Below are positions 34,870 to 62,139 of a DNA stretch of 64,000 bases, piece after piece. The translations under genes were made by a program, and so were the position numbers. Below the pieces are notes generated by a model that was given only the letters and a program-made list of their open reading frames with translations, was not told the DNA's origin and did not search any database. Position 1 is the stretch's first letter, and each line of letters starts with the position of its first letter. Origin of the DNA: Candidatus Heimdallarchaeota archaeon (lineage in GTDB: Archaea; Asgardarchaeota; Heimdallarchaeia; Hodarchaeales; Hodarchaeaceae); the NCBI GenBank assembly GCA_019057635.1, contig DXJL01000066.1, positions 1 to 64,000 of the forward strand. The letters are read 5' to 3'.

Positions 34870-36933
34870 TCATTTCGTAAGTAAGTTCCTTAGCTCAATT
34901 AAAACTTTATCAATCTCGTTGTTTGCTTTTCTAAGTTTATTATCATAATCGATTTTTAACTTAGCATAAGCTTCTTTTCCAATCCGACCTTGAGTTTTCT
35001 TCTTCTCTAATGACTCAATATTAATCAAGTAATCTTCTCTACTCGCCTCAGCAACTTCAATTGATCGCATAGACAACCGTATACGAGGATTTTCCTCAGC
35101 AAGTTTGCGAGAAACAGAGACAATAGTCCGATCATTCTGTTGCTGTTGATTTCGGAGAATAATTTTTGTCTGCTCATATTCTCGGGCACTAATATTTTTT
35201 GATTTTCGTTTGCGATCCAATCTTAGTATCTGTTCGCGAATTGCTGTCTTCTCTTCATACGATTTAACGAAACTTTTAATCAAATCTAGTGGTATTTCTT
35301 CAAGTACGAGTTTTGAGGGTTTATATCCAAATGAAAGGTTTCTAACAAGAGCGTATGCTAGACCAATTAATAAAAAGAATAATGAAAAAGAGATTGGAGT
35401 ATAAAGTTGGTTTAATGGACTTATTCCATATTCTATTCTAATTTGCTTATTACTAAGCGGGGTTAATTCTTCAAAACTTAACTTATATCCTCTACTATTA
35501 AATAGACCTAAGAATTGTTTTTTCTGAATAGCTGAAACAGAAACGGGACTTCTCAATGAACTTTCAAATGTTGCATCCATAATTTTTGTTCTGGATATGG
35601 ATGATCCAAATGGGAATAGTAATTCAAGATCGTACTCTTGAATTGTACAATTGAAGCTTGTTGACAGATCAGTTAATAGTTGTACTTTTCCCCCGCCGAG
35701 ATTGTTAATAACCTTAGTCGATGGTTGTGTGAACGAGAGTAGGAGATGATACTCTGCACCTTGTTCTATCTGGACTCTTGGTCTAAACTCAATTACTTTT
35801 TTCTGTGTTACTGGATCTGCATCTACAATTGGAGTGATATTTCCGTAGTTATCTTTAACTCCAATTTTACTCGCAGAATCTGGGACGTTAAATGATAATG
35901 TAGGAAAAGTCGTTCCTCCAAGTGCGGTTGATAGGACAGGTCCAGATTGTAATCCTATATTTTTTAGACGTATTTCTTGCGTGGTGAACACTTTTCCCCA
36001 CTCCGATACTTCAATAGTGGTCACCAAAGAAGTGAATGTCATAAAAGTTCCAGCAACCTGGAAATAGTCAAATGTCAAATTCTCTGTTAAATTATGAGCA
36101 ATATTCGGTTTGTAGGAAGGAATAAAGTTCCGATTTGCAAGAGCTGTAAGATTATAGTTACCATGTTCAGATTGATTTAGAACTTCCCGATTAATTGATG
36201 ATAATTCTTGAATTTCCTCGTAACGAAGAGTAGTTAATTCTTGATTAATATTTCCAGTAAAATTTGTTTCTGTTGGCCTTAATGATTCATTATTTATATT
36301 AATACTAATATCTTTTCCTACCATCCATTTTAAAGTGTAAGAAGTAATGGGAATGGTAAGTAAAGGTAAAAAACTTAAATTAAAATGGTAAGGATATTCC
36401 GACTCCACAAGTTCATCGTTTTGATCATAAGTTATGGCGTTCGGATGATCCATATCCATAATTAGAGTGACTGTCTCCTCAGAACCGACTGAAGGAAATT
36501 TTATAACAATTTCTGTTGTTTGATTTCCAATGTGAACATCATATGCTGTGTTTTCAGTCTCTGTATCATTCTGTGAGTAAATTTTGAAATACTTGGAGCT
36601 ATTATACTCATTTGTTGGAAGAATATAATTTAAAGCGTTGATTTCAGTGGAACTATTGCTTGATATCTGAATCTCTGTTCTAGATGAAGTATATCCATAT
36701 TGGTTTGCAGTTATTGTTCGATCTACATTAATTAGATGACTTGTGTTAGTAAATTCAGTAACATCGAAATACATTAAATCTGTGATGTTTAAATTACTGT
36801 TTTTTGTGTTCACTGAATCGGTGCTCGAACTCGCCTCACCAGCGTTAACTTGGGGATTAGCGATCAAGAATGTCGAAGTAATAACTATGGCGAGTAGTAA
36901 AAAACGCAAACCATTTCCTAAGATTTTCTTCAT
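34870..36933 (-). CDS. Ribophorin I (Ost1/RPN1) homolog
   Basis: Signal peptide, IEVSEWGKV (~IEVSHWGNI), KDNYGNI (~RDEIGNV), EFRPR, single TM, cytosolic helical tail. Confidence 0.8.
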   Translation of the reverse strand: MKKILGNGLRFLLLAIVITSTFLIANPQVNAGEASSSTDSVNTKNSNLNITDLMYFDVTEFTNTSHLINVDRTITANQYGYTSSRTEIQISSNSSTEINALNYILPTNEYNSSKYFKIYSQNDTETENTAYDVHIGNQTTEIVIKFPSVGSEETVTLIMDMDHPNAITYDQNDELVESEYPYHFNLSFLPLLTIPITSYTLKWMVGKDISININNESLRPTETNFTGNINQELTTLRYEEIQELSSINREVLNQSEHGNYNLTALANRNFIPSYKPNIAHNLTENLTFDYFQVAGTFMTFTSLVTTIEVSEWGKVFTTQEIRLKNIGLQSGPVLSTALGGTTFPTLSFNVPDSASKIGVKDNYGNITPIVDADPVTQKKVIEFRPRVQIEQGAEYHLLLSFTQPSTKVINNLGGGKVQLLTDLSTSFNCTIQEYDLELLFPFGSSISRTKIMDATFESSLRSPVSVSAIQKKQFLGLFNSRGYKLSFEELTPLSNKQIRIEYGISPLNQLYTPISFSLFFLLIGLAYALVRNLSFGYKPSKLVLEEIPLDLIKSFVKSYEEKTAIREQILRLDRKRKSKNISAREYEQTKIILRNQQQQNDRTIVSVSRKLAEENPRIRLSMRSIEVAEASREDYLINIESLEKKKTQGRIGKEAYAKLKIDYDNKLRKANNEIDKVLIELRNLLTK

Positions 36934-39059: not shown

Positions 39060-40472
39060 TTATTTTGAGTTCCTTAGGTTTGTTGAATTTTTTGACCCGA
39101 CTTCCTTAGCTTTAAACAGAAGGAGGATCCCAGTAACGCTAAGCATGAAAAGAAATAGTAATGTTTCTAAAAATCCTATTTTCTCCAAAATAAATCCAAG
39201 AATACTAAATCCGATTATAGAGACTGTGAGAGACAACGTATTCAAATAAGATTCTTGAGAGCTTCGATATTCTGATAGTGTTATATCGTAATATAAATGC
39301 CAATGAAGTCCTGAGGTCAACCCACTGATAATGAGCCGACTCAAGAAAATAATTATAATAAATATCAGACGCCAATAATAACTGATATTCACTAGGAGAA
39401 TAAAGAAAAATAAAATCCAAGCTAGAGGGAAATTCAGAGTATAAAATGCAACTAATCCTTGACGGGGAGATTTAATAAATGATGTGAATCTACCTGAAAA
39501 CCTACTTGAAACTCCGTATATAAAATCTGTAATAGAATTAATTAAAGATATAATCAATATAGCGAGTGAACTAAAATCAATTTTGACATATTCTCCATTC
39601 ACAACATTATCAGAAGATAATAAAGAATAAATAATTAATGGAAAAACAATAGTTGTGAAAGCCAGTGAAGTAAAACTAAGGATACCAAAACTAAGAAAAT
39701 AGGGTGAGACAGCGAGGTATTTTATCCGTAAATTATTCCCCAAATTTCTAATATTTGAAAAAAGATGGAACTTATTATTCTCAGATGTTAAGCGAACATG
39801 TATATTCCTCCCTACAGGGTTATAGTTCACCATAATAATAAATCCAAGAATGAAACCCACTAATGCAATAAATGCCTGTAATAAAAATATCAATTGGGGA
39901 GCTAGATGCACTTGGTACAATAAAATTCCTCCCAAAATGGTTAAAGAGGAAACTGCGATCATTTTAACGAATTTCACATTGCCCATTGTACTTCGAAATA
40001 GTCTCTCACTTTTTTCATTTCTATCCACAATATTTTCCCAAGAATTCAGAAACCATGCAATAAATGAACCTGAAAGAAGGGCAGAAAATATACCTACTAA
40101 TATTTCAAGACATAATAGCTGAAACGAACTCGTAGCAAAAATTAATCCTAGGTAATAAATCGTTAAACATCCTAAAGCCGCACAAAAGGCCCCTCTTTGA
40201 CCAAACTTGTCAGTGAGCATCCCTAATGGAAGATCTAATACAATCCCAAAGAACATACCAATGGCTACGATACTACCAAAAAGTGCGTATGATCCAAGAA
40301 TTGAGATATAATATAAAGAAATCCATGCATGGCTAAGATAAATTACTGTAATGATGAGTTCAAGACTAAAAAACCTCAATGTTAGGCTTTTCAGTTCTTT
40401 CGGATAATATTTTACACCCAATAAGGTATCAACATATAACATTTGTTTAATCTCCTGTTCATAAACAATCAT
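39060..40472 (-). CDS. MFS transporter
   Basis: PLGMLTDKFGQR motif A; about 12 TMs. Confidence 0.8.
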   Translation of the reverse strand: MIVYEQEIKQMLYVDTLLGVKYYPKELKSLTLRFFSLELIITVIYLSHAWISLYYISILGSYALFGSIVAIGMFFGIVLDLPLGMLTDKFGQRGAFCAALGCLTIYYLGLIFATSSFQLLCLEILVGIFSALLSGSFIAWFLNSWENIVDRNEKSERLFRSTMGNVKFVKMIAVSSLTILGGILLYQVHLAPQLIFLLQAFIALVGFILGFIIMVNYNPVGRNIHVRLTSENNKFHLFSNIRNLGNNLRIKYLAVSPYFLSFGILSFTSLAFTTIVFPLIIYSLLSSDNVVNGEYVKIDFSSLAILIISLINSITDFIYGVSSRFSGRFTSFIKSPRQGLVAFYTLNFPLAWILFFFILLVNISYYWRLIFIIIIFLSRLIISGLTSGLHWHLYYDITLSEYRSSQESYLNTLSLTVSIIGFSILGFILEKIGFLETLLFLFMLSVTGILLLFKAKEVGSKNSTNLRNSK

Positions 40473-40478
40473 TCTTGA

Positions 40479-41852
40479 TTAAGCAGGAGTAAGCTGTTGT
40501 GCAACACTAGAGACTAAACTGAAATTAACAATGGGGAATGATTGAGAATTAACCTCCCCTCCAGATATAATGACAAGATACGGAATTTTTCCTAATATCT
40601 GGGCATAATGTTCCATATACTGTTGAAATCGATCTCCAACAATCATTGCACGATTACCACAATCAAAGAATAGGCCAAATTTTGTGTTGTTTCCAATTAA
40701 AGAAGATAAGCTTTCATCTAGTAAATTCTCAATTGTTACCGCACTTTGATTACAGATATACGATTGATATTTATCTTTATGATTGACATATAGTTTTTTA
40801 GCAACCTGATTCGGTGCAGTAATTAAAGCATGATTAAGATTTGGATTTATTGAAAGTCCATATAAATTTTGACTCTTCTTATCATCTAAAATACATAAAG
40901 GCTTAAAGGGGTGGTAATAGAAATATTTTTGGGTACATTCTTCAAGAATTTCTGGAGTACTCTCCATTTCATATATTTTAAGTAAAGATTTCGCTCCCCA
41001 TTGACCGTCTATTCGCGGAATAAATCCTCCATCCAAATAACTGTCAAGAGAGAAAGGTTTCTGGAAATCTACCGTTGCTCCAGTATCAGTTTTACTCATG
41101 AATCTTAAATCAGGAGAGCTAAGTGATATAAATGTCATAGAATCTTTAAATGCCTTATAATTGTAAAATTGATACGATTTACTCATTGAAATGGGATCTA
41201 CCCCAAATGTACCGGTATAATGAATACCTCGTTGATATAATTCTTGAAATAAAGGCCATGCTGATGAATATGATATTCCAATGCCAAAGAGATTCATGAG
41301 AAAATTAACAACTTTCCCTGTGAACCGGGAAAGAGCTGGTACATCCCTCCAGATTCGATTATTTAAGGCAAAAAATGGATTAAATCCTTCAAGTCTATGA
41401 TTCATTAAATTTACCATAAGTTTCGGAAATCCTAGACCAGGAGGAAAAAAGATGAAACTTGTAGAAGAATTCTGTTTTAATTCTTTATTTTCAATGGTTA
41501 TACATTTTTTTAGAATTTCTTTGGTTTTGGTTCCTGTCCTAAGACGGAAACGCTTAATTAAATGTGTACTGACCGATATACCTGAAAAAAGCATGATTGC
41601 AGCTCCTTTCAGACCATAATCCTTACTATTCGCTATTCCAGTCCCCGAACATCCTGCTAAAGGAATAGTTGGATATGTTTTCTTGATAATCTTTAAAGAT
41701 TGATTATATACTTTCTTACCACCAGGATGGGTTCCAGTAAAGTAAAGAATTCCAGTTGGTTCCGTATTTAACTCAGTTTCAGCTTGTTGAAGAGCTGTCT
41801 TTGTTGCGAATTTTAGATCGTGATTTATACAAAGTCCAACGGAAGTTTTCAT
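40479..41852 (-). CDS. FIST-domain sensory protein
   Basis: FIST-N YPTIPLAGCSGTG; FIST-C GLFFDCGNR, GGEV, VNFS. Confidence 0.75.
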   Translation of the reverse strand: MKTSVGLCINHDLKFATKTALQQAETELNTEPTGILYFTGTHPGGKKVYNQSLKIIKKTYPTIPLAGCSGTGIANSKDYGLKGAAIMLFSGISVSTHLIKRFRLRTGTKTKEILKKCITIENKELKQNSSTSFIFFPPGLGFPKLMVNLMNHRLEGFNPFFALNNRIWRDVPALSRFTGKVVNFLMNLFGIGISYSSAWPLFQELYQRGIHYTGTFGVDPISMSKSYQFYNYKAFKDSMTFISLSSPDLRFMSKTDTGATVDFQKPFSLDSYLDGGFIPRIDGQWGAKSLLKIYEMESTPEILEECTQKYFYYHPFKPLCILDDKKSQNLYGLSINPNLNHALITAPNQVAKKLYVNHKDKYQSYICNQSAVTIENLLDESLSSLIGNNTKFGLFFDCGNRAMIVGDRFQQYMEHYAQILGKIPYLVIISGGEVNSQSFPIVNFSLVSSVAQQLTPA

Positions 41853-42304
41853 TGCTCTAAATCACCTATTGATTGTTTTCTATCTATTACTATTCCTAAA
41901 CGCTTCGCAGTTCTGCTCATCTCTATTTCCATTAATCCAGTATTCGCCCTAGAATGTAATATCACAACTAAAATCCCTGAGTTACCAGCACGGTAGAAAT
42001 AAACTGGAAGTGCTTCATTTTGATCTATTTGTTTATTATATTTTATAGATCTAGCACCATGTTTGAGTTCTTCTTTTGTTTTTGAAATAATGTCTTTTAC
42101 CCATCTAATAACAGTTAGGATAGAACTAGAAGTTTCTGGATTATAAAAAGAGGTTAAAACTCTTCCATCTAAGCGAAAAAGAATTGTTGCTCTTACATCT
42201 CGAAATGTAAAAAGATGGTCAGCTTCTATTTGGATTGATGAGATTGCTCTGGATAATTTTAAGGCCTGATCATCCATATTACTTATTGGAGATTTCATAA
42301 ACAA
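41849..42304 (-). CDS. Roadblock/LC7 (MglB/LAMTOR-like) protein
   Basis: VRATILFRLDGRVLTS; AGNSGILVVIL..ANTGLMEIEMSRTA. Confidence 0.75.
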   Translation of the reverse strand: MFMKSPISNMDDQALKLSRAISSIQIEADHLFTFRDVRATILFRLDGRVLTSFYNPETSSSILTVIRWVKDIISKTKEELKHGARSIKYNKQIDQNEALPVYFYRAGNSGILVVILHSRANTGLMEIEMSRTAKRLGIVIDRKQSIGDLEQ

Positions 42305-43031
42305 TTAATCCTTTTTCTTTTTGAAAACTGATAGGTTGAGGAGTTTCAGAGTGTGACGATCCTCTAAATTTTCTAATACTCATTGTTCGATTGTAGATGC
42401 CTCCTAATCCAATATGTTCTAGTTCTATAATGGAATCGGATAGAAAAAGAGGGATTCTAGCTAAGACATCTCCAAAACCTTTTTCTAATGTGACTACGGC
42501 TGTTCCAATCTCTCTAAGAGATGAAAAAATTCGATTGATTGCGTTACGCTGTTGATTTGGGTCTGAAATTTCTAAAAGTAATGGTGTCAAAGGATCAATT
42601 GCTATTCGTATTCCTCCCGAATATTTTGAAGCGGTTTCTTTTATTATTTCAAGATATTTAGGGAGTTCATTCATAAAAAATCTTAAACCAATTTCTCCTG
42701 AAGTTAATTCTGAGTCGGCATTAAAAGCAACTTGGAATTGTAAATTCCCCTCTCTGTATTTTTCACCAAAGCTTTTCAATCCAATATCACTACAGTCTCT
42801 TAATACCGAATTTATATTTTGCTCTAGTGACACATAGAGAGCTGGAGTGTGTAGATCAGATGAACAATACTGCCAACAAAAAGTGGATTTTCCACACCCA
42901 GGATCCGCAATAATCACGTTGACCGAATGCTCTCTAAATCCACCATTTACAAGGTTGTCAAAGCCGATTACTCCACTAGGTATCCGCGAAGATCGTGCAT
43001 TTATCGTTTTTCTCAATAATTTTTGCATCAT
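42279..43031 (-). CDS. Single-domain KaiC/RAD55-like RecA-superfamily ATPase
   Basis: IPSGVIGFDNLVNGGF, Walker A ADPGCGKST, YVSLEQ, RIAID, RKFRGSSH. Confidence 0.88.
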   Translation of the reverse strand: MMQKLLRKTINARSSRIPSGVIGFDNLVNGGFREHSVNVIIADPGCGKSTFCWQYCSSDLHTPALYVSLEQNINSVLRDCSDIGLKSFGEKYREGNLQFQVAFNADSELTSGEIGLRFFMNELPKYLEIIKETASKYSGGIRIAIDPLTPLLLEISDPNQQRNAINRIFSSLREIGTAVVTLEKGFGDVLARIPLFLSDSIIELEHIGLGGIYNRTMSIRKFRGSSHSETPQPISFQKEKGLIVYEISNK

Positions 43032-43038
43032 TAATTCC

Positions 43039-43629
43039 TCATGAAACTAATAGTTTATTAGATAATTGAGTATTTGAATCTGAAGATATGTTCGTTAATT
43101 TACTGTTTTTTCTTTCGATTGTCAATAGAACTTTCTCAAAAATATTTATAACCGATTTTAAATCTTTAGCTGAACATTTAAAAGAAGTTACACAATTAAA
43201 CCTTTGAATATATCTCGCTAAATCGAAATTTTTCTCATCTTGAGTTGCTAAGTCGGATTTTGTACCAATTAAAAATCGGGGAATAGCAGGTGTGATAAAC
43301 TCAAGCCATTCACTTAGATTGAATAAGGAAGAAAGATCAGTAAGGTCGAAACAAAGTAATGCGGCATCAGCACCCTTACAAAATTCACTAAAGACTCCCA
43401 TGTGTTTGAAATGCTCTTGACCACCAAGATCCCAAATCTGTAGCTTGCTCACTCCCTTATCAGAATGAGTAATAATCTTCGAATGGAACTCTACTGCAAT
43501 CGTTTGTTTCGATTTTGTGAAAAAATAATTATCGATGTATGATTTCGAAATTGTTGTTTTTCCTACACCCCCTTCTCCCAAAAGAACTATTTTCAATGGT
43601 TTTTTTTCTTTCGAAGGAACTAACTGCAA
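43039..43629 (-). CDS. Rab-like small GTPase
   Basis: G1 GEGGVGKTT, G2 TIAVEF, G3 WDLGGQE, G4 TKSD, G5 CSAK; RabF-like KLQIW, FCKGA, CFDLT. Confidence 0.9.
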   Translation of the reverse strand: MQLVPSKEKKPLKIVLLGEGGVGKTTISKSYIDNYFFTKSKQTIAVEFHSKIITHSDKGVSKLQIWDLGGQEHFKHMGVFSEFCKGADAALLCFDLTDLSSLFNLSEWLEFITPAIPRFLIGTKSDLATQDEKNFDLARYIQRFNCVTSFKCSAKDLKSVINIFEKVLLTIERKNSKLTNISSDSNTQLSNKLLVS

Positions 43630-43731
43630 TAATTACACCTAATCCCTTAGTAATTGAGTCTAATTTAAACTCCTAAAAAACACTAAATTTGGGGATATTA
43701 TAAAGAATTTTTTTCTTGATTTCATGGTGGA

Positions 43732-43947
43732 ATGATGAAAAGGCGTTATAGTTTGAAAGGTATTCATTCAATAAACACAAGAATACGAATTAAAAGAAGA
43801 GGTTCTCCACTTGTGGAAGAAGGAATATTGATAGGATTGAGTTTATTCGGTTTTTTGTTAATTTTTTCAATAGTTACAGGAGTCCTAGATTGGCTTTTGA
43901 TAAATGCAGATGAGCTATTACGAGAACTTGGGTCTTTATTTACTTAG
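43732..43947 (+). CDS. Flp/type IV pilin-like protein with a class III signal peptide
   Basis: Basic leader ending KRRG, then SPLVE (Glu at +5), hydrophobic helix, short C-terminus. Confidence 0.6.
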   Translation: MMKRRYSLKGIHSINTRIRIKRRGSPLVEEGILIGLSLFGFLLIFSIVTGVLDWLLINADELLRELGSLFT

Positions 43948-44089
43948 ATGCAGCTCATCTTGACTTTTTTTGTTACAAACCGCTATCTATTGTCTGAAAA
44001 ATACCTATCGGCTATTTGAAATTATTTAATGCTCTCAAAAATTACGTAGATTTGTTTTGCAAAGTAAAAATTATTAAAAGAGTGTGATA

Positions 44090-44164
44090 TGGACCGAGTG
44101 GGATTTGAACCCACGGCCTCCTGGATGCAAACCAGGCGCTGCTACCAAGCTGAGCTATCGGCCC
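44090..44164 (-). tRNA. tRNA-Ala(TGC)
   Basis: GGGCCGA/TCGGTCC acceptor with G3:U70, CCTGG-TTTGCAT-CCAGG anticodon arm, GTGGG-TTCAAAT-CCCAC T arm. Confidence 0.93.
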
Positions 44165-44207
44165 AATGACTTGATTTCTGATTATTTAGTTGTGTTTTAT
44201 TAAGCTT

Positions 44208-52760: not shown

Positions 52761-53003
52761 TTATACAATATACACGTTTAGAGTTAAAATCAATAATCCA
52801 AATATTATTGCATACTTTCCAAATTTAGTACCAGTAGGAACATAGAGTATCGACCCTAAGGTAAGTGAAAGGAGTCCAAAAGGTATCGAGATAAAAATCG
52901 AAATAATTTCCTTAATTATCTGAACAACTATTACTTCTAGCATTTTATTACCACTTCCAAGTGGGAAAATTAGGAAAGTTATTTCCAAGGGGAATAATGA
53001 CAA
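52761..53003 (-). CDS. Small 2-TM protein, possibly TrbC/VirB2-pilin-like (likely start at MLEVIV)
   Basis: Helical hairpin: hydrophobic-GSILY-loop-GKYAIIFG-hydrophobic. Confidence 0.4.
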   Translation of the reverse strand: MSLFPLEITFLIFPLGSGNKMLEVIVVQIIKEIISIFISIPFGLLSLTLGSILYVPTGTKFGKYAIIFGLLILTLNVYIV

Positions 53004-53610
53004 CTAAAAGACAAATTATACTTTTTCTTATATTTTTAACAAAATTTTTTTCTGGATTAATAATATATAACCCACAGTTGCCAATGAGAAAAATTAGAGA
53101 TACTGTAGCAAGAATAAATACGAGATACATACTAACGAAAGATGTAAAAGATTCAAGCTGCTCAAGATTTGGCGAATTCATATTATTCTTGGGAGAAAAA
53201 TCATTAAATATGAAAATGAATAATGTAATTATACTAAGTGCACGGATGATCATTTTCTTACCATTTTCTTCCCTTTCATCTAGTAAATATGTTATTCCTC
53301 CTGATATCAAAGATAAGTATGATATTAGAAGTGCAATCACGTGAAGAAAGGGTAGAACTTCAACGAATAAGCCAATAATCGATGAAGAAATCCCCTCAAA
53401 TTGATTAATATCTAATATGTCAATAATTAGAATTATTTGACTCCTTAATAGTATTAGATAAGAATTTAATTCGTCTTTCTGACTTAATCGATACATGTTC
53501 AAAAATAAATGTTTTACTTGTATATAAGAACCATAAAATATTCTATATCTGTAAGTAGTAATTCCTAAACCAAATACCCCCTTATCTGAGACAAAGGACT
53601 TATCCTTCAA
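52948..53610 (-). CDS. Membrane protein with two TrbC/VirB2-like helical-hairpin repeats (start uncertain)
   Basis: LISGGITYLLDEREENGKKMIIRAL and LIGNCGLYIINPEKNFVKNIRKSII repeats. Confidence 0.45.
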   Translation of the reverse strand: MKDKSFVSDKGVFGLGITTYRYRIFYGSYIQVKHLFLNMYRLSQKDELNSYLILLRSQIILIIDILDINQFEGISSSIIGLFVEVLPFLHVIALLISYLSLISGGITYLLDEREENGKKMIIRALSIITLFIFIFNDFSPKNNMNSPNLEQLESFTSFVSMYLVFILATVSLIFLIGNCGLYIINPEKNFVKNIRKSIICLLVVIIPLGNNFPNFPTWKW

Positions 53611-54932
53611 ATCATGTCCAGATTTCTTGTTTCGAGATAATTAATGGTAAAAGAAGAATGTGTATTAATCTGTGAGTCAATAAATCGATCCTTTTGCCTA
53701 TCAGAAATTGTCAAGATATCTCCTTCTGGAGTTAGCTCTGCAATTCTAATAATAAATCTCTTACGGATGTTTTCTCTCCAAACTGTATCCATCTCAACAA
53801 ACACATGAGGGAATGACGTTTTAATGAGACTTATAGGAATTTTATAAATATCTTGTAATCGTAAGAGCAAATAATTGGGATCTTTTCCATGAATTGTCTG
53901 GATCGAGGGTATACCAACCGAAAGAACATTCAAGAGTGCTATAAAATTATCTTTTGTAGAAAGTTCTCCTAAGTTGACATAATCAGGACTTCTATGTAAT
54001 AATTTTTGAATTTCCATTGCTTTTGTATAGATATTGCTTTCATGAGGATCATAACCAAGCCTAAATCTTACCTGATTACCCCTCCTCAAACTTGAAGTTT
54101 CTAGTACATCCTCTACAGATAAAACTCTGAAATGAGAAGGAATAAATTCTAATAGAGCATTTTGCAGAGTTGTCTTTCCCGAGTTTGGAGGACCGATAAT
54201 GGAGAGGGATACTAAATTACTCATTATACTACTTAGAAAAATTCCTTGAGATTTCGTGATACTCCCGATATCAATCAAATCCTTAAGATGAAAATTGTGA
54301 TGACGAAACTTCCGTATATCTAAATGAATATCATCTATCAGTAAAGGTGGAATGTCAACCGTTATTCGTGTATGAAATAGCTTAGTCACAAAATCCCCCT
54401 TCATTGTTGGATTTTCTCGATTTAAATTAAAATCGTTCTCGAGAGCTACCCTATGTATAAAAGAGTCAATTTCTTTTTTGGATAACCGAATTTGGGAAGA
54501 ACACCTACCATACTGAGCATGATCAATGTATAAATAAGATTTACTCGAATCCAAGTATATTTCATCAATTTGGTTATCTACTAGCAAGGATCCAATTCTC
54601 TCCATGTTTAGAATTCTGAAAAGAACAGGAATAATTAAATGCTCTGAAAAACCTAAAGTCTTTCCTCCTAGATCTGATACAAAGGAAAGTAGTTCATCTA
54701 GCGTTATGAAATCTTGTTTATCCACAATTAATTCTTTTATGGTGTCTTTCAGCTCCTGTTCATACAAATTAAACCTTTTCAGTTCCCTCATTACTTTCTC
54801 ATCATAAACAACTTGATATTCAATCTTCGACGTAATTTTGTTCTTCTTTATCGATGCTTTATAACACCAAAATTCGTAAGAATCAATCAACATGCTAGAT
54901 TTTTGATTTATAACTAAATCAACTAATACCAT
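53607..54932 (-). CDS. Type II/IV secretion ATPase (VirB11/TadA-CpaF/ArlI family)
   Basis: EIYLD..YIDH..YG, DIRKF, Walker A GPPNSGKTT, Asp box SVEDVLE, Walker B RSPDYVNLGE, QTIH. Confidence 0.9.
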   Translation of the reverse strand: MVLVDLVINQKSSMLIDSYEFWCYKASIKKNKITSKIEYQVVYDEKVMRELKRFNLYEQELKDTIKELIVDKQDFITLDELLSFVSDLGGKTLGFSEHLIIPVLFRILNMERIGSLLVDNQIDEIYLDSSKSYLYIDHAQYGRCSSQIRLSKKEIDSFIHRVALENDFNLNRENPTMKGDFVTKLFHTRITVDIPPLLIDDIHLDIRKFRHHNFHLKDLIDIGSITKSQGIFLSSIMSNLVSLSIIGPPNSGKTTLQNALLEFIPSHFRVLSVEDVLETSSLRRGNQVRFRLGYDPHESNIYTKAMEIQKLLHRSPDYVNLGELSTKDNFIALLNVLSVGIPSIQTIHGKDPNYLLLRLQDIYKIPISLIKTSFPHVFVEMDTVWRENIRKRFIIRIAELTPEGDILTISDRQKDRFIDSQINTHSSFTINYLETRNLDMI

Positions 54933-54962
54933 GCAGAATTTCCTCCAATATTTTTCAAAAGA

Positions 54963-55322
54963 TTACTTTTTCTGTCTCATTGAGTTCTTAATCATTTTCT
55001 CAAATAAATTATCAAGTTTTCCAGGAGCAAATTTATCCATCTTAATGAGATTCTTCCGAACTAAATCAAAACAATATTTTCTTCTGACTTGACCATCCCC
55101 ATCTATATACAAGGTTAATACATGGCCATTTTTGGCGTGAGAAATTGCCTTCGTCAGAAGAGAGTGATCATTCCTTGCTTGTTCCAATTCTGTGAGATTT
55201 ATGGTTATAGACTCATATTTTCCACAAATAGGACACGTAGTGGTAATATACTTTGTCTGCTCTTCTAAAACGGGCACTTCCATCAATATTCTTATCGAGA
55301 ATATACAATTAATAACACCCAA
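54963..55322 (-). CDS. Small Zn-binding protein, unknown function
   Basis: CPIC...H...GHVLTLYIDGDGQVR; co-oriented upstream of the ATPase. Confidence 0.6.
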   Translation of the reverse strand: MGVINCIFSIRILMEVPVLEEQTKYITTTCPICGKYESITINLTELEQARNDHSLLTKAISHAKNGHVLTLYIDGDGQVRRKYCFDLVRKNLIKMDKFAPGKLDNLFEKMIKNSMRQKK

Positions 55323-55622
55323 ATATGATCAAAATTGTCCGATAAATCTTTCTCCTCATTTTCACCCTAGATAATAATGGAGGTTTATTTTGTTTTTTAC
55401 CTTTATTTTTCTTGATATAGATTATGCATTCTTAGGTTCTTATGAATCAATACTCAGTTAGCATTTGTAAATTGAAAAGGAATATAACTAAGGTTTTATC
55501 ACGCATTATGAAATTTCTGTATAGAACAAACGAGACAAAAGCGAGTTAAATCCAATGATCCCTTATATATTAGCTTTTAATAATACTTTATTGAATAACC
55601 AAGAATTTTTGAGGAATTCCGG

Positions 55623-57098
55623 TTGATGGATGTTATAACTAATCATGTATTCGGGAAATTAGATTTTTTTGAGAAACTAAATTACTCTCATTACTGGAAA
55701 TCTAAATATTGGATTACTAGAAGTCAGATAGAAACATTAATCCCCATTCTTAGTGTATTGTTTATAGGATTTACGTTTATTCAAATAATGACGGATCTTA
55801 TTAGAATCGAGTACCTGATCCTAGAATACTTCTTCTTTTTCGTGTGTTTACGTCTCATTTTTCTTTTCATACATCAAGATTTCAAAAATTATATGATTAA
55901 AGCTGAAATTATAGGATATTTTGTACTACATGAGTTATTAATAATTCTGGAAACATCAAAATCACTGAAAGAGGCGACTAAGTTTATTATAACAGGTAAA
56001 TATTTAATATTCTCGGATATATTTAGTGAAAGCCTGATTAGATCGCATTTTGGGCAACAACTCAATGATGCTCTTAGATCTCAAATTAATAGCCAAATTT
56101 CTGGAGAGTTAAGACGTATTTTTCTCAACGTTATTGATACTTGGGAAACTGGAGTTGAAGTCGCTCAGCTATCAACAAATATGATTCTAAACCATCTTTC
56201 CGAATATATTACGGAAGAAACTGATAAAGTGGATACGTGGGGTTCCCTTTTCTCAGGATTAATTTTCTTAAGTCCTCCAGTGATCTTATGCTTTCTCTTG
56301 CTTTCAGGCCAGATAAGCTATATTATTGTAATCATTTTAATAGCAACTGTTTTTTTTGGTTCATTTTTATTTCGACCTGATAAACATCTATCAATATTTA
56401 CCAGTGATTCACCGATTTTACCCTTTACTGACAATAAGACGATTGAATTATTAATGATCCATGCTGAAAACTTATCATTAGGAGTGTCCTATACAAAAAG
56501 CTTGAATAAAGCTTTAAATATTTATATCACAAATTCGACAGAGGACATCGCTTCCTCAATGAAAGACTCTCTTATTTCTTTTCGTCTAGGTATAGAACGC
56601 ACTTCTTTTACTGAGCTTGAAATTCTTAGGAAATTTTTTTCCTCTAGAACAATTCAAATCCTTAATTTGATTGAAAAATTTAGTTATGTTAACACAAAAC
56701 TAGCAGGTTCTAAGCTAATGATGATAACAGAAGAAATGAGTAAAACCGGCAACTTACTTCGCACTGGAAAAGCCAGAGTAAAAGCAATATCATTTCAGAC
56801 TACAATCATACAAACATTTTCACTTATTTCTTTAGGATTTATAGCTGGAGCAAGTCCTTTCTTTCAATTGATATCCTATTCTGTTGGAGAATTTGATCTC
56901 AAGACTCATATAGTTACAAATTTTGACCCTATTTTCATTTTCCTTGGATTTCTAATGAGTATATTACCTATATACTTTAATTTCAGCTCTGAATACAAAA
57001 TAAAGTCAACACAAGATATCATCATTCGTATTTCACGATTTCTGCTGTTCTTGATTGTATTCAATCTTGCTAGAGAAATCCTGACGGTGTCTTTCTAA
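55623..57098 (+). CDS. TadB/TadC (ArlJ/GspF-like) membrane platform protein
   Basis: Two repeats of TM pair + cytoplasmic helical domain (LETSKSLKEA..GQQLNDAL..TWETG; LSLGVSYTKSL) followed by TMs; divergent from the secretion ATPase. Confidence 0.6.
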   Translation: MMDVITNHVFGKLDFFEKLNYSHYWKSKYWITRSQIETLIPILSVLFIGFTFIQIMTDLIRIEYLILEYFFFFVCLRLIFLFIHQDFKNYMIKAEIIGYFVLHELLIILETSKSLKEATKFIITGKYLIFSDIFSESLIRSHFGQQLNDALRSQINSQISGELRRIFLNVIDTWETGVEVAQLSTNMILNHLSEYITEETDKVDTWGSLFSGLIFLSPPVILCFLLLSGQISYIIVIILIATVFFGSFLFRPDKHLSIFTSDSPILPFTDNKTIELLMIHAENLSLGVSYTKSLNKALNIYITNSTEDIASSMKDSLISFRLGIERTSFTELEILRKFFSSRTIQILNLIEKFSYVNTKLAGSKLMMITEEMSKTGNLLRTGKARVKAISFQTTIIQTFSLISLGFIAGASPFFQLISYSVGEFDLKTHIVTNFDPIFIFLGFLMSILPIYFNFSSEYKIKSTQDIIIRISRFLLFLIVFNLAREILTVSF

Positions 57099-57188
57099 AG
57101 AAAATAAATTTCATAAATTCTTGGGTTGTTTTAAATCTAGTTGGTGATCCTTAAGTAGAAATAAGATTTCAGGTAGGATTCTATTTAA

Positions 57189-60100
57189 ATGAGAGCTGGT
57201 CTATTTGTTCTTGATAAGGGTCAATCTATCGTGATATTATTTTTGTTTGTATCACCCATACTTGTAACCACAAATAATTCATCTATATCCTCATTAATAG
57301 GAATGACCGATCCTGATAATAGGTTAATGTCGTTGGCTTCAAGAACCAACGTTCAAAATGAGTTACCTGACATTCAACCAAGCATTCAATCCAGTTCTAC
57401 AAACAATAATCGAATCCCGTATTCCTGTGAACAAAATACCAGTGTTGATCTTACTAGCAAAAAGTTCTTTTCGATTAATACATCGGAAACTAGTAACATT
57501 CTTGTAGAATCAACCCCGATATCATCATCGTTCCTCATTCATTCTGGTGTCTCAGAAGAGAGAATTTCTTGGCAAAACGATATTGAGCCTGAATATGGCG
57601 ATGTAGAAATCTTTAAAAATCTCTCTGCATTTTTCCCGTATTATCGTCTGAATTTTTCAGAAAATAATGTTACTCCAGTGTCAGGAGTAACAAATACTGA
57701 TTTTAATGTAACAGCTAATCCATCACCATGTAATTTCTCAACAGAATTTTTATTCGAATATAGAATTCCCTTCATAAACAGTACGTTGATTAATGAAATT
57801 CATTCCTTAGTTTTGGAACTAAGGTTCAATGATGCCTCTTTAAATTTCATAATTGCTGACAAAGGTAGTTATTTCGGGACTCCTGTTGAGGAGAATGTTT
57901 ACAAACCTGGTACCAATTCATTATATATTCTGTGTAATGAAACAGACCAATCTGATTGGATTTTCAAAAATTATAATATTACACATTTAATTACTCAATA
58001 CTTCCTCCCCTCCGAATATTCTTTTTTCTCTCGGTTAGAAACCGTGTTTTGCTATATGTTTGCCTTCATTCCTGAATTCCACATTAGTTTAGACATTAAG
58101 GTGATTAATTATACTACTATATTGTCTCCTAATGAAAGTGCAGTGATATATACTATTGGCGAAACAGAAATTCAGAGTGAAAATGGAAGTCTGAAATATG
58201 AATTTCTTGGTAGTAATATATCACTTCAAGCCAGAGAAAATACTTTGTGGTATAATTACCAGATAACGATGTTCAATGTAGTTATAACACGATATATTGA
58301 AGTTTTTACTAGACCCCAACTGATTAGTTGGAATAACACTTTTGTGCGAGTCAATTTGAATCTATCTATTCCCCAGCTTTTCTCTCAGTCTCTTTCTAGT
58401 CGACTATTCATAACTCTTCCCTTGGATTGGATCCTCCTCAATAATAGAAACAGTTCAATACCTTTTGAAACATTAGGGCTTTTAGAAATCCCCTCTGATA
58501 ATTTGACTGGTCAACTATATTGTTTTTCGATTCAAAATCTTGAGACTTTTTTATTACAAAGCTGGGTTCCAAACTATATAAAAAATATTGAAGCTCCAAC
58601 TATTGTCTCATATTATGAGAAGATTCAAGTTCTAGGAAGCTTATTACAGCCAACAACAGGAGTCTTGCATCTCTATTTAATGAATAATACAGTTTTTCAT
58701 CATGATACTACAATTTGTATGTTGAATGGTAGTTTCATATTTTCTATGATAAGTATTGATGATATTTATCCATTAGGAGTCATTAATCTACTAATCAATC
58801 TGTCTTCTAATTATCAATTTGGAATATATCAACAAATACTTCACATTCACTCGGGGGAGGAAACCTCCGCCCGTATTAATCTCTTCACACCTGAAGTTCT
58901 TGAGATATACCAATACGATCCGATCTTTCTGAACCTCTCACTGGAAAAGAATGGATTAAAATACTTAGAAGAGTCAACAATGGTTATTCTAGTAATAGGA
59001 GAGTTTATACATCAATTAAATCAATCTATCAATGGATTTTTCCATCTCACAGTAAACCATGTAGTCTGGCCACCACAACAGAGCAATGTCACTGTTATTG
59101 CATCAAATGGTGGAGATTTTTTTGCATCAAAATACATAAATATAACGATTTATCCTATAGTTGTTGATTGGGATATTCAAAGGATTCCAGAAGTACAAAA
59201 TCCTGATAGTAATCTTTCTTTGGGAGTAAATGTATTTATAAGTCCACAAGAGGGTGGTACGAATTGGCCCTTATCTGGGGTGGATTTAACGATCTGGGTT
59301 AACAGTACATTGATTCATCAGTGTCCAACTAATGATTTTGGGTATGCTGACGTCATTATATCATCCAGAAATTACCACACTTCAAACCTTTTAAATCTAA
59401 TTATCATTGCGAAATTAGAAAATATCATACTTAAGATGAATACCTTTACAATCTCAATATCTAATGATTCTACCGAGACTGACAGAATTCATCCCTATCT
59501 CGATGAAATTATGAAAACTCCGATAGTCAGTAATAAGAGTTTTTTTTGTATTTACCATGTTATGTATCCTACTAATGGTTCTCAATGGTTTGTTTCCCAT
59601 GATAATTATCAAGGTACTCCAATTTCTGCCTATTTAATGAGAAATAATATTGTTTTAGAGATTGAAGTCACAGATCAATTAATTACTTGGGATCTTGTCA
59701 GTTCTCCAACGAATAATGATACTTTAGTCGTGGAATTTCTGGGGCCGTTTGTTACTTTTTCAGTCTCGCAAGGAGTTTCGAGTTATGATTTACATATTGA
59801 AAGTTTCTCGAATTCTACAATTTCTAATTATACAATAATATTGGATTTGGATTTCATTGATTTTCCTTTGAGTAAAATCGTTTTACGAGATTTTCTTAAG
59901 AGAGATATTACAAATAAGTTTGAAGTCGAACTTATAGACACACATATTCACTTAAAATTCTTAAATATTATTAATGGGATAATTGTCAACTACTATCTTG
60001 AGATCCAATTTGATACCCCTAATATCGAAATACTGACTAATTTTATGGAGAATTATGCATATGACGGCCTTATCACTGGAAAATGGAGATTTACTTCTTC

Positions 60101-60713
60101 CAGTGAGTTTTCCTATTCGGTTTCATATACAATTTCGAACCAATCTAGATCTGAGTGTCGAAATACAACTATAATTCCCCTTCCGAATAACACGTTCATT
60201 GTAGAAGCCTTTTTTCCAAGATTCAAATGGAATTCATCTGTTTTTGTAACCTTGAAGTTAAATTTCCCAAATGGAGCAATTTCTACAAGTCCTGGACAAT
60301 TCTTTACTATCATTGATCCCTATCCTCCTGATTATTCTTTTTATCTTGAATCCCACGACGAAATTATCAATCTTCATATAATCACAGCTGAACCTGAGTC
60401 AGGATCAGGAGTCCAAAGAATAATCGGTAAATATCTTGGAATTCAGTATAATTCATCGGTTTTAAACACAAATCATCATCTGATTGAACTTCCAAGAAAT
60501 AATTCTCAATTTGGGGTGATTAATGTTATAATATCAGATTGGGCTGGGAATGAAAATTCCTTTAATATTGATTTGAAATCTGAGTTGGAATCCCAACCTA
60601 TGAGAGAGAAACTAGATCCTTCGTTATTCCTCCCATCGCTATTCTCTCTAATGTCAATTTGTGGAATTTTGGCTTTTAAGTTCATAAGAAAAAGACAATC
60701 TTCTATTCTGTGA
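57189..60713 (+). CDS. Large cell-surface glycoprotein (Ig-like beta-rich, C-terminal TM anchor)
   Basis: N-terminal hydrophobic signal, many N-x-S/T sequons, IDPYPP...SGV...SDWAGN Ig-like motif, C-terminal TM + RKR. Confidence 0.7.
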   Translation: MRAGLFVLDKGQSIVILFLFVSPILVTTNNSSISSLIGMTDPDNRLMSLASRTNVQNELPDIQPSIQSSSTNNNRIPYSCEQNTSVDLTSKKFFSINTSETSNILVESTPISSSFLIHSGVSEERISWQNDIEPEYGDVEIFKNLSAFFPYYRLNFSENNVTPVSGVTNTDFNVTANPSPCNFSTEFLFEYRIPFINSTLINEIHSLVLELRFNDASLNFIIADKGSYFGTPVEENVYKPGTNSLYILCNETDQSDWIFKNYNITHLITQYFLPSEYSFFSRLETVFCYMFAFIPEFHISLDIKVINYTTILSPNESAVIYTIGETEIQSENGSLKYEFLGSNISLQARENTLWYNYQITMFNVVITRYIEVFTRPQLISWNNTFVRVNLNLSIPQLFSQSLSSRLFITLPLDWILLNNRNSSIPFETLGLLEIPSDNLTGQLYCFSIQNLETFLLQSWVPNYIKNIEAPTIVSYYEKIQVLGSLLQPTTGVLHLYLMNNTVFHHDTTICMLNGSFIFSMISIDDIYPLGVINLLINLSSNYQFGIYQQILHIHSGEETSARINLFTPEVLEIYQYDPIFLNLSLEKNGLKYLEESTMVILVIGEFIHQLNQSINGFFHLTVNHVVWPPQQSNVTVIASNGGDFFASKYINITIYPIVVDWDIQRIPEVQNPDSNLSLGVNVFISPQEGGTNWPLSGVDLTIWVNSTLIHQCPTNDFGYADVIISSRNYHTSNLLNLIIIAKLENIILKMNTFTISISNDSTETDRIHPYLDEIMKTPIVSNKSFFCIYHVMYPTNGSQWFVSHDNYQGTPISAYLMRNNIVLEIEVTDQLITWDLVSSPTNNDTLVVEFLGPFVTFSVSQGVSSYDLHIESFSNSTISNYTIILDLDFIDFPLSKIVLRDFLKRDITNKFEVELIDTHIHLKFLNIINGIIVNYYLEIQFDTPNIEILTNFMENYAYDGLITGKWRFTSSSEFSYSVSYTISNQSRSECRNTTIIPLPNNTFIVEAFFPRFKWNSSVFVTLKLNFPNGAISTSPGQFFTIIDPYPPDYSFYLESHDEIINLHIITAEPESGSGVQRIIGKYLGIQYNSSVLNTNHHLIELPRNNSQFGVINVIISDWAGNENSFNIDLKSELESQPMREKLDPSLFLPSLFSLMSICGILAFKFIRKRQSSIL

Positions 60714-60720
60714 GCTAACT

Positions 60721-62139
60721 ATGATGATCTTGAGAGAAAAAAATCAAATCTGGAGAGTATTGTTATTCAGTTTTTTTATTGGATGTTTTTTCATTATCAG
60801 TATGTTCAGCATTTTTTTTTCTGGAGAAACTCAATATTCCTCAAATTACATGTTCACATTGATAATTGGAAACATAATTCCCATTGCAATCGCGTGTCTG
60901 TTGATTTTCTATGAACTGAATATATTTTCATTTGAAAGAAAAAAACTAATGACAATTAAAGGAGGGAAGGTGCTATTCATTCCCCGATTCAATTTGTATT
61001 TAAGTATATTTGAGTGTAGTTCAGTATCAGATGTTTTTGTCGAGGGGTTAGATTTATTAAATGCGTTGAATAGGTATTCAATTGAAATAGATGGAATTAA
61101 TAATAGATTAAGGGTGTTTTTTTATTCAAATTCAATAATTGAATTGTCTAGATACATAGAGGAAGCCAAACCATTACTTGATACAATCTTTCCCAATTTA
61201 CTGTTACTAACTGCTTCTTCTCTAAAAGAAGGATTTCTAAATTATTCGCTTAAGAGGATGGGGGATTATCGTGCGATAAAACAAGGGCATTATTTGATCA
61301 TTCCAGAAAAAGAACAAAACTTTCTCTTAAAAAGTCCGAAAAATTATACACATGTCATAAATTATAACTCTCAAGCAAGTTCTGAGGAAAAAGCAAATAA
61401 ATTTGAGTCCATCCAGCTCTATTCTTTCATTAGATTTGAAGAAGCATCATTTTTCGATTTTTTTGGGAGAATGTGTTTTACCGATAGAAATATGTTTTTT
61501 ACTGACATAGTTGAAGAAAATCTTCTTTTACGCGCAATAATTCGGTATAAACTTATTGGTTTTAACTCTATTTCGGATAATGAGGGAATAATTAACTTAC
61601 AACAAAAATTAAATGCATTAAATATGGGAAATAATGCTGTAGAATATCCTGACAAATTTATACCGCCTCTAGCCGCTCTGAGCGAACATAATCCTGATTC
61701 ATCAAATTTTCTTTCAATTAATCAGAAATTTAATCAAATTTGCATGGAATTATGTAACATTTCTCGGAGTTCAATGGATGAGGCAGTTAAAGCAAAGAAT
61801 TGCGTTGATAGGGCAAGTTTTTGTAAAAAACTTTTAATCAATCAAAATTTCGCAAATTTCCTTAGTGAACTTGTTGATGGTGAAGACGATCAAAGAAAAG
61901 ACACTATATTATCTGATCTTCTAAGACATGTGTCTTTTCATCAAATTCATTGTTTATTAGCACAGTTCATTGCTTCTTACGACTCTGATAATCTCGATAA
62001 GCAAATTATTAAATTATTGCATGTTTTAATACAAAAACAACTCGAAATTAATAGTATTGAAGGAGATTCGGGGAGAAATTACTTTTCAGTTGTAGAATCT
62101 TTTCATCAAAGACTGAATCACGGGACAAACATTGCGTGA
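60721..62139 (+). CDS. Membrane-anchored hypothetical protein (2 N-terminal TMs, large soluble domain)
   Basis: 472-aa ORF starting 7 nt after the surface-protein gene; two hydrophobic N-terminal segments. Confidence 0.65.
   Translation: MMILREKNQIWRVLLFSFFIGCFFIISMFSIFFSGETQYSSNYMFTLIIGNIIPIAIACLLIFYELNIFSFERKKLMTIKGGKVLFIPRFNLYLSIFECSSVSDVFVEGLDLLNALNRYSIEIDGINNRLRVFFYSNSIIELSRYIEEAKPLLDTIFPNLLLLTASSLKEGFLNYSLKRMGDYRAIKQGHYLIIPEKEQNFLLKSPKNYTHVINYNSQASSEEKANKFESIQLYSFIRFEEASFFDFFGRMCFTDRNMFFTDIVEENLLLRAIIRYKLIGFNSISDNEGIINLQQKLNALNMGNNAVEYPDKFIPPLAALSEHNPDSSNFLSINQKFNQICMELCNISRSSMDEAVKAKNCVDRASFCKKLLINQNFANFLSELVDGEDDQRKDTILSDLLRHVSFHQIHCLLAQFIASYDSDNLDKQIIKLLHVLIQKQLEINSIEGDSGRNYFSVVESFHQRLNHGTNIA

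Follow-up and report, generated by a model that had tools for sequence, protein, structure and literature searches.

What does a Rab-like small GTPase do in an archaeal operon that also encodes a KaiC-like ATPase, a Roadblock-fold protein, a FIST-domain protein and an MFS-fold membrane protein, and that stands head to head with the gene for a tiny pilin-like protein? The question is raised by a locus in a 64,000-nucleotide (nt) stretch of a Hodarchaeaceae genome (Candidatus Heimdallarchaeota archaeon, GenBank assembly GCA_019057635.1, contig DXJL01000066.1, positions 1 to 64,000; hereafter the window), the assembly of which comprises 3.19 Mb in 214 contigs and is 91.6% complete. Comparing this locus with its relatives, we find that the first four of these genes recur together in a second family, and that two further genes change sides between this four-gene cassette and a cluster encoding a T2SSE-family ATPase. 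On this comparative evidence we tentatively read the cassette as a Heimdallarchaeial signalling unit that may act on a type-IV-filament-like machine, a reading to which we give slightly less than an even chance.

The five open reading frames (ORFs) of the operon are co-oriented on the minus strand and run from the GTPase gene (43039..43629) through the KaiC-like (42279..43031), Roadblock-like (41849..42304) and FIST (40479..41852) genes to the MFS gene (39060..40472), with successive spacings of +7, –26, –4 and +6 nt; the overlap of 26 nt between KaiC and Roadblock shrinks to 20 nt when the Roadblock start is placed at the ATG at 42298, which is the start used by its relatives. Between the start of the GTPase gene and that of the pilin-like gene p71 (43732..43947, plus strand) lies a divergent region of 102 nt (43630..43731), in which A/T-rich TATA-like boxes can be read in both directions (TTTAAA at 43664–43669 and ATATTATAAAG near 43697) and may serve as promoter elements. 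An earlier note on the window had described a tight five-gene operon that shares a spacer of about 100 nt with a divergent gene, and the ORF coordinates confirm this arrangement; all five of its domain assignments (GTPase, KaiC, Roadblock, FIST and MFS) are likewise borne out by the Pfam, profile and model evidence given below.

Conservation of the four-gene core

Loci were fetched with a FIST profile, which yielded 44, 18 of the type found in the genus of the window and 26 of a Heimdallarchaeaceae type, and presence was screened across 400 genomes of the phylum. Three of the 18 genus loci are fragments or contain an assembly gap, and the counts given here use the other 15. All 15 have p71 next to KaiC-Roadblock-FIST, the GTPase gene is present in 12 of them, and the last gene of the operon encodes an MFS-fold protein in every genus locus that extends that far. 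The Heimdallarchaeaceae loci show the order KaiC-Roadblock-FIST-GTPase, contain neither an MFS gene (0/26) nor p71, and have unrelated flanks (RPA, EF-1alpha); all four core genes are found in 24 of the 26, the remaining two being truncated by contig ends. That the same four genes recur in a second family, in a different order and between unrelated flanks, argues for an arrangement beyond chance, and their recurrence without the MFS gene delimits the conserved core to these four. Of the conserved neighbourhood that the earlier note had envisaged, the four-gene core therefore stands, whereas the gene order and the MFS and p71 genes do not carry over to the Heimdallarchaeaceae, and the transporter, which it had counted as part of the unit, drops out.

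Counted by genome among the 400, the FIST subfamily occurs in 21 of 21 members of family f1 and in 28 of 31 members of family f3; further finds are one f4 genome, on a 6.8-kb contig of f3-like look, and genome G397, which belongs to another class. The G397 cluster (locus L077, G397:C48:16000-30500) has KaiC-Roadblock-FIST followed by an MFS gene (MFS_1 6.9e-39) that is not orthologous to that of the window, with a longin-like gene divergent upstream and no GTPase. The evidence comes from one genome, contaminated to 9%, and the cluster occurs in 0/2 other genomes of its class.

Within the core, the KaiC and Roadblock genes follow each other directly in every lineage, with the overlap of 20–26 nt here, an overlap of 4 nt in L026 and a gap of 37 nt in L077. 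The GTPase gene has gone from the operon in two species (G019 and G005), where p71 and KaiC are separated by only about 190–235 nt, and in locus L045 an unrelated ORF occupies its place. Its orthologue in these two species is found elsewhere in the genome (58–60% identity, against 43% at most for the paralogues), immediately downstream of another Roadblock gene of canonical type (Robl_LC7 3.5e-16; G019:C266, L097 1–866, and G005:C51, L098 2–932), the orthologue of which in the genome of the window (G000:C125, L100 3045–3446) is solitary. Relocation of the GTPase beside another Roadblock gene points to a real relation between the GTPase and Roadblock proteins. Judged by gene order, the Roadblock gene of the cassette has a closer tie to KaiC and FIST than it has to the GTPase, which changes position or departs; this mobility, together with the place of the orthologue beside a second Roadblock gene, suggests that the cassette's own Roadblock protein belongs first to KaiC and FIST.

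Two observations on the wider surroundings of these families are added here. In 24 of the 26 Heimdallarchaeaceae loci the gene for a protein of 252 amino acids (aa) with winged-helix repeats (L026 6378–7136) lies directly upstream of KaiC, 23 times on the opposite strand; the repeats resemble the N-terminal part of the UFM1 ligase UFL1 (PF09743 2e-8). Other Asgard families (f17, f19 and f20; loci L079, L080, L085 and L086) have a conserved Roadblock/gelsolin-like/FIST/LuxE-like/LuxC-like cluster, which also includes a larger Roadblock-domain protein and a 96-aa gene, and in which no KaiC was detected within about 4 kb.

Genes shared with a T2SSE-family ATPase cluster

At a distance of 10 kb from p71 the window encodes a T2SSE-family (PilB/ArlI-type) ATPase of 441 aa (53607..54932, minus strand; PF00437 5.1e-14, 52.1 bits, above cut-off, with 60 bits, likewise above cut-off, for the homologue in L112). 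Its best Heimdallarchaeum homologue heads an operon that ends in a p71 homologue, the set there consisting of a TFB-like gene, the T2SSE-family ATPase, two membrane proteins and, last, the p71 homologue; in family f4 the p71 homologue is instead the first gene of the same ATPase set. In tables read by eye, as were those for the pairs of ATPase and Cys2-His2 genes discussed below, 30 genomes outside the genus have a p71-family gene at most 8 kb from the orthologous ATPase gene, both on one contig (20 in f3, 7 in f4, 1 in f6 and 2 in f7), and 13 of these 30 pairs, spread over the four families, are at most 3.5 kb apart. Operons containing both a p71 homologue and the ATPase were inspected in L112, L113 and L126.

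The second gene with two addresses encodes a small Cys2-His2 protein. Its Heimdallarchaeaceae form (105 aa, CxxC...HxxxxH...DGxGxxRR) is the last gene of the cassette and follows the GTPase in 24 of 26 loci. The window encodes a 119-aa form (54963..55322, minus strand) as the first gene of the ATPase operon, directly upstream of the ATPase, a position that it holds in 19 of the 20 genus genomes with both genes; this is the only member of the family found in the genome of the window, and it matches the Heimdallarchaeaceae protein in BLASTP (1e-9) and in hhalign (95.4%, E 1.7e-8). The pilin-like gene has thus left the ATPase cluster for the GTPase cassette, and the Cys2-His2 gene accompanies the GTPase in one family and the ATPase in the other. 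Such a two-way exchange favours the view that cassette and filament-like machine are functionally linked, and gives comparative support to the suggestion of the earlier note that the operon may control a pilus.

The pilin-like reading of p71, made in the same note, draws similar support from its motif and from its neighbours in the ATPase operons. The 71-aa protein has a basic, variable leader, a class-III-signal-like motif, a hydrophobic helix and a short tail. Type IV prepilins typically carry Gly or Ala at –1 together with Glu at +5, and the motif of p71, [KR][GA]/SPLVEEG (the slash marking the putative cut), has Glu at +5, its SPxxEE form being kept across families. The 47 residues after the putative RRG cut are near-invariant over 13 species of the genus, in which the neighbouring KH and Rio proteins are only about 60–65% identical, and S25, P26, E29, E30, D53 and W54 are invariant across families. 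Homologues were found in 70 of the 83 genomes of the class; the homologue search returned 327 proteins, and the best 120 of these 327 are unnamed or hypothetical.

Several reports make a link between such genes and filaments plausible. The accessible text of PMC4858521 states that archaeal type IV pilus loci encode KaiC-family ATPases and Roadblock proteins, the part of PMC4316618 available to us places Myxococcus type IV pili under the control of MglA and SofG, and passages of PMC13705601 describe surface structures of Hodarchaeales that are likely to belong to the type IV filament superfamily, with scattered loci. The protein contacts, the direction of the signal and the output that we infer for the cassette can be set out as a chain. 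The cytoplasmic FIST protein would sense a small ligand or a metabolic state and alter the nucleotide or oligomer state of the KaiC-like ATPase; the Roadblock protein, encoded directly after KaiC, would form a dimeric platform that relays this state to the GTPase, as a GTPase-activating protein, a nucleotide exchange factor or a scaffold; and the GTP-bound GTPase would act via the Cys2-His2 protein on the T2SSE-family ATPase, which would build or retract a filament of the 71-aa Flp-like pilin. The genus-specific MFS protein, added at the 3′ end of the operon, would perhaps be an importer of the ligand or a transceptor. Taken link by link, from FIST and KaiC setting the Roadblock platform, through the switched GTPase and its Cys2-His2 adaptor, to the filament ATPase and its pilin, this complete chain is rather doubtful.

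The ATPase cluster holds further genes that might belong to such a machine. Downstream of the ATPase are two small membrane proteins of 220 and 80 aa (52761..53610, minus strand), recognised as ORFs with hydrophobic sequences, which are kept in the genus and have no family match. A polytopic membrane protein of 491 aa (55623..57098, plus strand) is a candidate platform protein on weak similarity only: its C-terminal half is colinear with a membrane protein of 222 aa encoded in the Heimdallarchaeum operon (weak, E 0.001), and a comparison with a 270-aa platform candidate gave no similarity. According to the available part of PMC13705601, the parts of a type IV filament system are an ATPase, a protein that serves as platform, another that forms the filament, as well as a class III signal peptidase. 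The genome's only Peptidase_A24 match (G000:C82:21502-21882) is marginal, at 27.7 bits with a cut-off of 26.5; a Roadblock paralogue (G000:C82:24266-24622) lies 2.4 kb from it.

The cluster as a whole (52761–62139) is of low GC content (about 31%) and sits between rpoA'/A'' and the ribosomal genes S9/L13/L18e, its plus strand encoding the 491-aa protein, a secreted-looking protein of 1174 aa with a C-terminal anchor and a protein of 472 aa; G010 and G012 keep it, G008 has it in rearranged form, and in G007 it was not seen within 14 kb. A TFB-like gene with a zinc ribbon and a weak TFIIB repeat adjoins the ATPase in f3 and f4 (L112 5220–6260, L113 10859–11899, L126 3276–4334 and L124 16341–17372), and archaeal pilus loci with TFIIB homologues are mentioned in the text of PMC4858521 accessible to us. 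Members of the Cys2-His2 family also occur outside both clusters, two of them in G397 directly after two other small GTPases, one of the two members being the N-terminal part of a 320-aa protein. The domain likewise forms the N-terminal part of proteins of 237–375 aa in f4, f5 and G397 (L117–L123).

The proteins of the cassette

The GTPase (196 aa, TTG start) matches Pfam Ras with 4.1e-31 and 108 bits (cut-off 21.6) and has the motifs G1 GEGGVGKT, G3 WDLGGQ, G4 TKSD and G5 SAK, with K24, T43, D67, Q71, K124 and D126 invariant in an alignment of 17 sequences. Among PDB sequences its 60 best matches are without exception Rab/Ypt proteins, with Ypt7/Rab7 at the top (2e-21), so that the designation Rab-type in the earlier note is upheld. 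No prenylation-type cysteine was found in its tail, which ends ...SNKLLVS; C-terminal cysteines for prenylation are a feature of Rab and the Ras superfamily in the portion of PMC10933270 available. Membership of the Rag/Gtr family was rejected, since the protein consists of the GTPase domain without a C-terminal roadblock domain and Gtr1_RagA reaches only 21.2 bits (cut-off 22), over residues 13–76. MglA-type GTPases have a divergent G3 motif, in which most groups lack the usual Asp. Membership of the MglA family was also rejected, on account of the canonical WDLGGQ with its invariant Asp and because no MglA is among the best 60 PDB matches. Asgard genomes encode eukaryote-like small GTPases by the dozen, and the genome of the window by itself has 25 matches at E 1e-10 or better. 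Complex prediction with two Roadblock chains, the GTPase, GTP and Mg gave scores of 0.01 and 0.10, below the mark of 0.32, and, being run with no controls, counts neither way.

The KaiC-like protein has a single domain of 250 aa (PF06745 7.8e-29, 101 bits) that aligns with the CI domain of clock KaiC (8zn5, 5.9e-28). The Walker A residues G45, G47, K48 and T50, the catalytic E70, Walker B D146, and the sensor residues R215, K221, R223 and H227 are invariant in three lineages, so on sequence grounds it is expected to be an active ATPase. We rejected identity with clock KaiC, the protein being a single domain rather than CI plus CII and scoring 83.8 bits against a cut-off of 408 with the NCBIfam KaiC equivalog. 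The NCBIfam model for ArlH gave only 29.9 bits against a cut-off of 215.

The Roadblock-like protein, 151 aa long or 145 aa if begun at the ATG at 42298, has no match in Pfam, where PF03259 is matched by two of 18 family members, at best with 0.0045. A profile of the 18 homologues finds the Thorarchaeota Roadblock 7f8m in the PDB over its full length (4.2e-6), and the AlphaFold2 (AF2) model (pLDDT 85.5) has the order alpha-beta-beta-alpha-beta-beta-beta-alpha, with Roadblock3 of Prometheoarchaeum MK-D1, MglB (about 1e-6), 7f8m and Ragulator as top Foldseek matches, at probability 1.00. By profile and model, the third gene of the operon is thus a divergent Roadblock/LC7 subfamily.

The FIST protein of 457 aa is predicted to be cytoplasmic and has no further domain. 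FIST_N scores above its cut-off in the protein of the window (2.5e-7, 31.2 bits) and FIST_C below it (1.3e-5, 25.8 bits; cut-off 28.5), and the homologues reached by the family profile have both domains above the cut-offs; the closest public homologue is from B3_Heim, with 98% identity. The MFS-fold protein of 470 aa, particular to the Hodarchaeales-type operon, matches MFS_1 below the cut-off (30.3 bits). Its AF2 model (pLDDT 76.5) finds MFS transporters in 49 of 49 listed Foldseek matches (ranks 1–50), with TM 0.56–0.64 on the query, which at the level of the model confirms the MFS fold, and the segment GMLTDKFGQRG in the alignment resembles what we take to be MFS motif A. PDB sequence searches with the FIST profile and with the MFS protein gave nothing relevant.

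Beyond p71 follow a tRNA-Ala gene (TGC anticodon, 44089–44165, minus strand), which lies between p71 and a KH-domain gene, and then housekeeping genes (KH protein, Rio kinase and Csl4-like); SecY lies on the other side of the operon. Adjoining SecY is a gene for a 687-aa protein (34870–36933), which has a signal peptide, numerous N-x-S/T sites and, towards its C-terminus, a coiled region; it is kept across the genus and has no family match.

Alternatives, known systems and meaning

A number of findings weigh against a link between the cassette and a filament. The p71 protein matches nothing in Pfam at E values up to 10, nor any sequence in the PDB, and its language-model look-alikes (DUF6133 at 0.87 and Flp1-like at 0.86, under the mark of 0.9) are leads only; among the membrane proteins of the ATPase cluster, Pfam gave no T2SSF match. 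The adjacency of p71 and the operon in 15 of 15 genus loci is by itself weak evidence, because synteny across the genus spans the whole region including the housekeeping flanks. Cassette and ATPase cluster are 10–16 kb apart in f1 and in most of f3, both near the RNA polymerase/ribosomal block, and inherited synteny may account for some of this proximity. Of the 18 g8 genomes in the 8-kb set, 17 have the p71 homologue 4–7 kb from the ATPase, with housekeeping genes between the two in G055, the one locus read, and in G024, G397 and G022 the p71 homologue is in neither cluster. The operon can also do without its GTPase, which lies elsewhere in two species, gives way to an unrelated ORF in L045 and is lacking in G397, and the occurrence of FIST and Roadblock with LuxE/LuxC and gelsolin-like genes elsewhere in Asgard archaea suggests that the sensor core is not tied to filaments.

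The cassette might instead control another output typical of Rab-like GTPases in Asgard archaea, such as membrane remodelling, protrusions or the actin cytoskeleton, its closeness to filament genes being inherited synteny without functional meaning. The GTPase is indeed Rab-like, gelsolin-like genes stand beside FIST and Roadblock in the other lineages, Hodarchaeales move by actin-filled protrusions according to the part of PMC13716822 that was accessible, and up to three of the four families keep the ATPase cluster near RNA polymerase/ribosomal genes, a block with stable order. We consider this account unlikely, as it leaves unexplained why two genes, the pilin-like and the Cys2-His2 gene, were swapped between exactly these two clusters. 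The core could also be taken apart differently, with KaiC-Roadblock-FIST as a self-contained sensor/ATPase unit with exchangeable outputs, in which the Roadblock protein would serve KaiC as KaiB serves clock KaiC and the GTPase would be a late passenger. The order of these three genes is fixed in three lineages in which the GTPase moves, leaves or is missing, and the LuxE/LuxC clusters of other Asgard families would fit a unit of this kind; against it stand the presence of a GTPase gene in most loci of both types (24 of 26 and 12 of 15) and its landing beside another Roadblock gene when it left, which speaks for a genuine relation of the two, and we hold this proposal to be quite improbable.

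The nutrient-sensing switch modelled on Rag-Ragulator, which the earlier note had favoured, would have the MFS protein import or sense a nutrient, FIST bind it and Roadblock act on the GTPase, with a metabolic or growth output rather than a filament. The MFS gene that closes the operon throughout the genus is in its favour, as is the second, unrelated MFS gene after KaiC-Roadblock-FIST in G397, and the Roadblock model matches Ragulator and the Rag C-terminal domains, if less well than MglB. Yet no Heimdallarchaeaceae locus has the MFS gene, which places it outside the core; G397 is one genome with the contamination noted above and without the cluster in its classmates; and the 196-aa GTPase best matches Rab and not Rag, lacks the C-terminal roadblock domain and stays below the Gtr1_RagA cut-off. 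The claim of Rag-Ragulator-like sensing is thus set aside as having only a slim chance. The swap of genes between the two clusters leads us to retain, with the reserve expressed at the outset, a signalling unit that acts on a type-IV-filament-like machine.

Among known systems, MglA/MglB and the actinobacterial conservons, and not Rag-Ragulator, come closest to the cassette in their logic. As in Myxococcus xanthus and Thermus thermophilus, a small GTPase of the Ras superfamily shares its locus with a regulator of Roadblock fold, and MglA and SofG steer type IV pilus ATPases (PMC4316618, in the part available); unlike MglA, the GTPase of the cassette is Rab-like with a canonical DxxGQ G3, with a KaiC-like ATPase and FIST interposed between the partners. 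The loci read showed no recognisable RomR/RomX-type genes, though these were not searched for by name. Conservons, as far as the same partial source describes them, combine the CvnA histidine kinase, the CvnB Roadblock, CvnC and the CvnD MglA-type GTPase in one operon, and with the mycobacterial mfp operon share with the cassette an ATP-using sensor, a Roadblock protein and a small GTPase. Conservon membership was rejected, the operon having neither a histidine kinase nor an MglA-type GTPase and only the Roadblock protein and the overall logic in common; its sensor would be FIST with a KaiC-like ATPase in place of a membrane histidine kinase, its GTPase is of another family, its lineage is Asgard, and no CvnC-type protein was recognised in it, though none was searched for.

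The KaiC-like protein shares with the archaeal filament regulators of the ArlH type (arCOG01171-01175) a single KaiC domain with an intact active site, but its gene stands outside a filament operon and is coupled to FIST and a GTPase. Rag/Ragulator has in common with the cassette a Roadblock-fold platform for a small GTPase and a transporter nearby, and differs in its Rag-type C-terminal domain and its heterodimeric GTPase pair, neither of which the cassette has, and in that the cassette's transporter is outside the core. Tad/Flp pili and minimal archaeal type IV filaments resemble the proposed machine in the T2SSE-family ATPase, the membrane proteins, the tiny prepilin-like protein with its Gly at –1 and Glu at +5, and a Peptidase_A24 elsewhere in the genome; unlike Tad/Flp pilins, p71 matches neither the Flp nor the class III signal family models, the platform protein was not recognised, and the pilin-like gene is beside a GTPase operon, 10 kb from the ATPase.

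Simple or scattered type IV filament loci in Heimdallarchaeia and Hodarchaeales are already in print (PMC13705601, as far as its accessible part goes). New here are the p71 homologues beside a T2SSE-family ATPase in four other families and the Cys2-His2 gene shared between the GTPase and ATPase neighbourhoods; a literature search, with Makarova, Galperin and Koonin 2017 (mBio) and supplementary files outside its range, found no paper on the KaiC-Roadblock-FIST-GTPase cassette. The available portion of PMC10933270 reports that the small-GTPase genes of MK-D1 are generally not in operons with Roadblock, longin or TRAPP genes, so that their partners cannot be read from the genome. The cassette departs from this pattern: for a single Rab-like GTPase it identifies a Roadblock protein, an ATPase and a sensor-type protein together with a candidate effector, and it suggests an output that can be put to the test. 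Strains of Hodarchaeales have meanwhile been brought into culture, as stated in the accessible parts of PMC13716822 and PMC13705601, which makes pull-downs, localisation and expression studies feasible. If the reading is true, no earlier Asgard small GTPase would have had its regulators, effector and cellular output named, and Rab-like switches would have governed surface machines before internal membranes.

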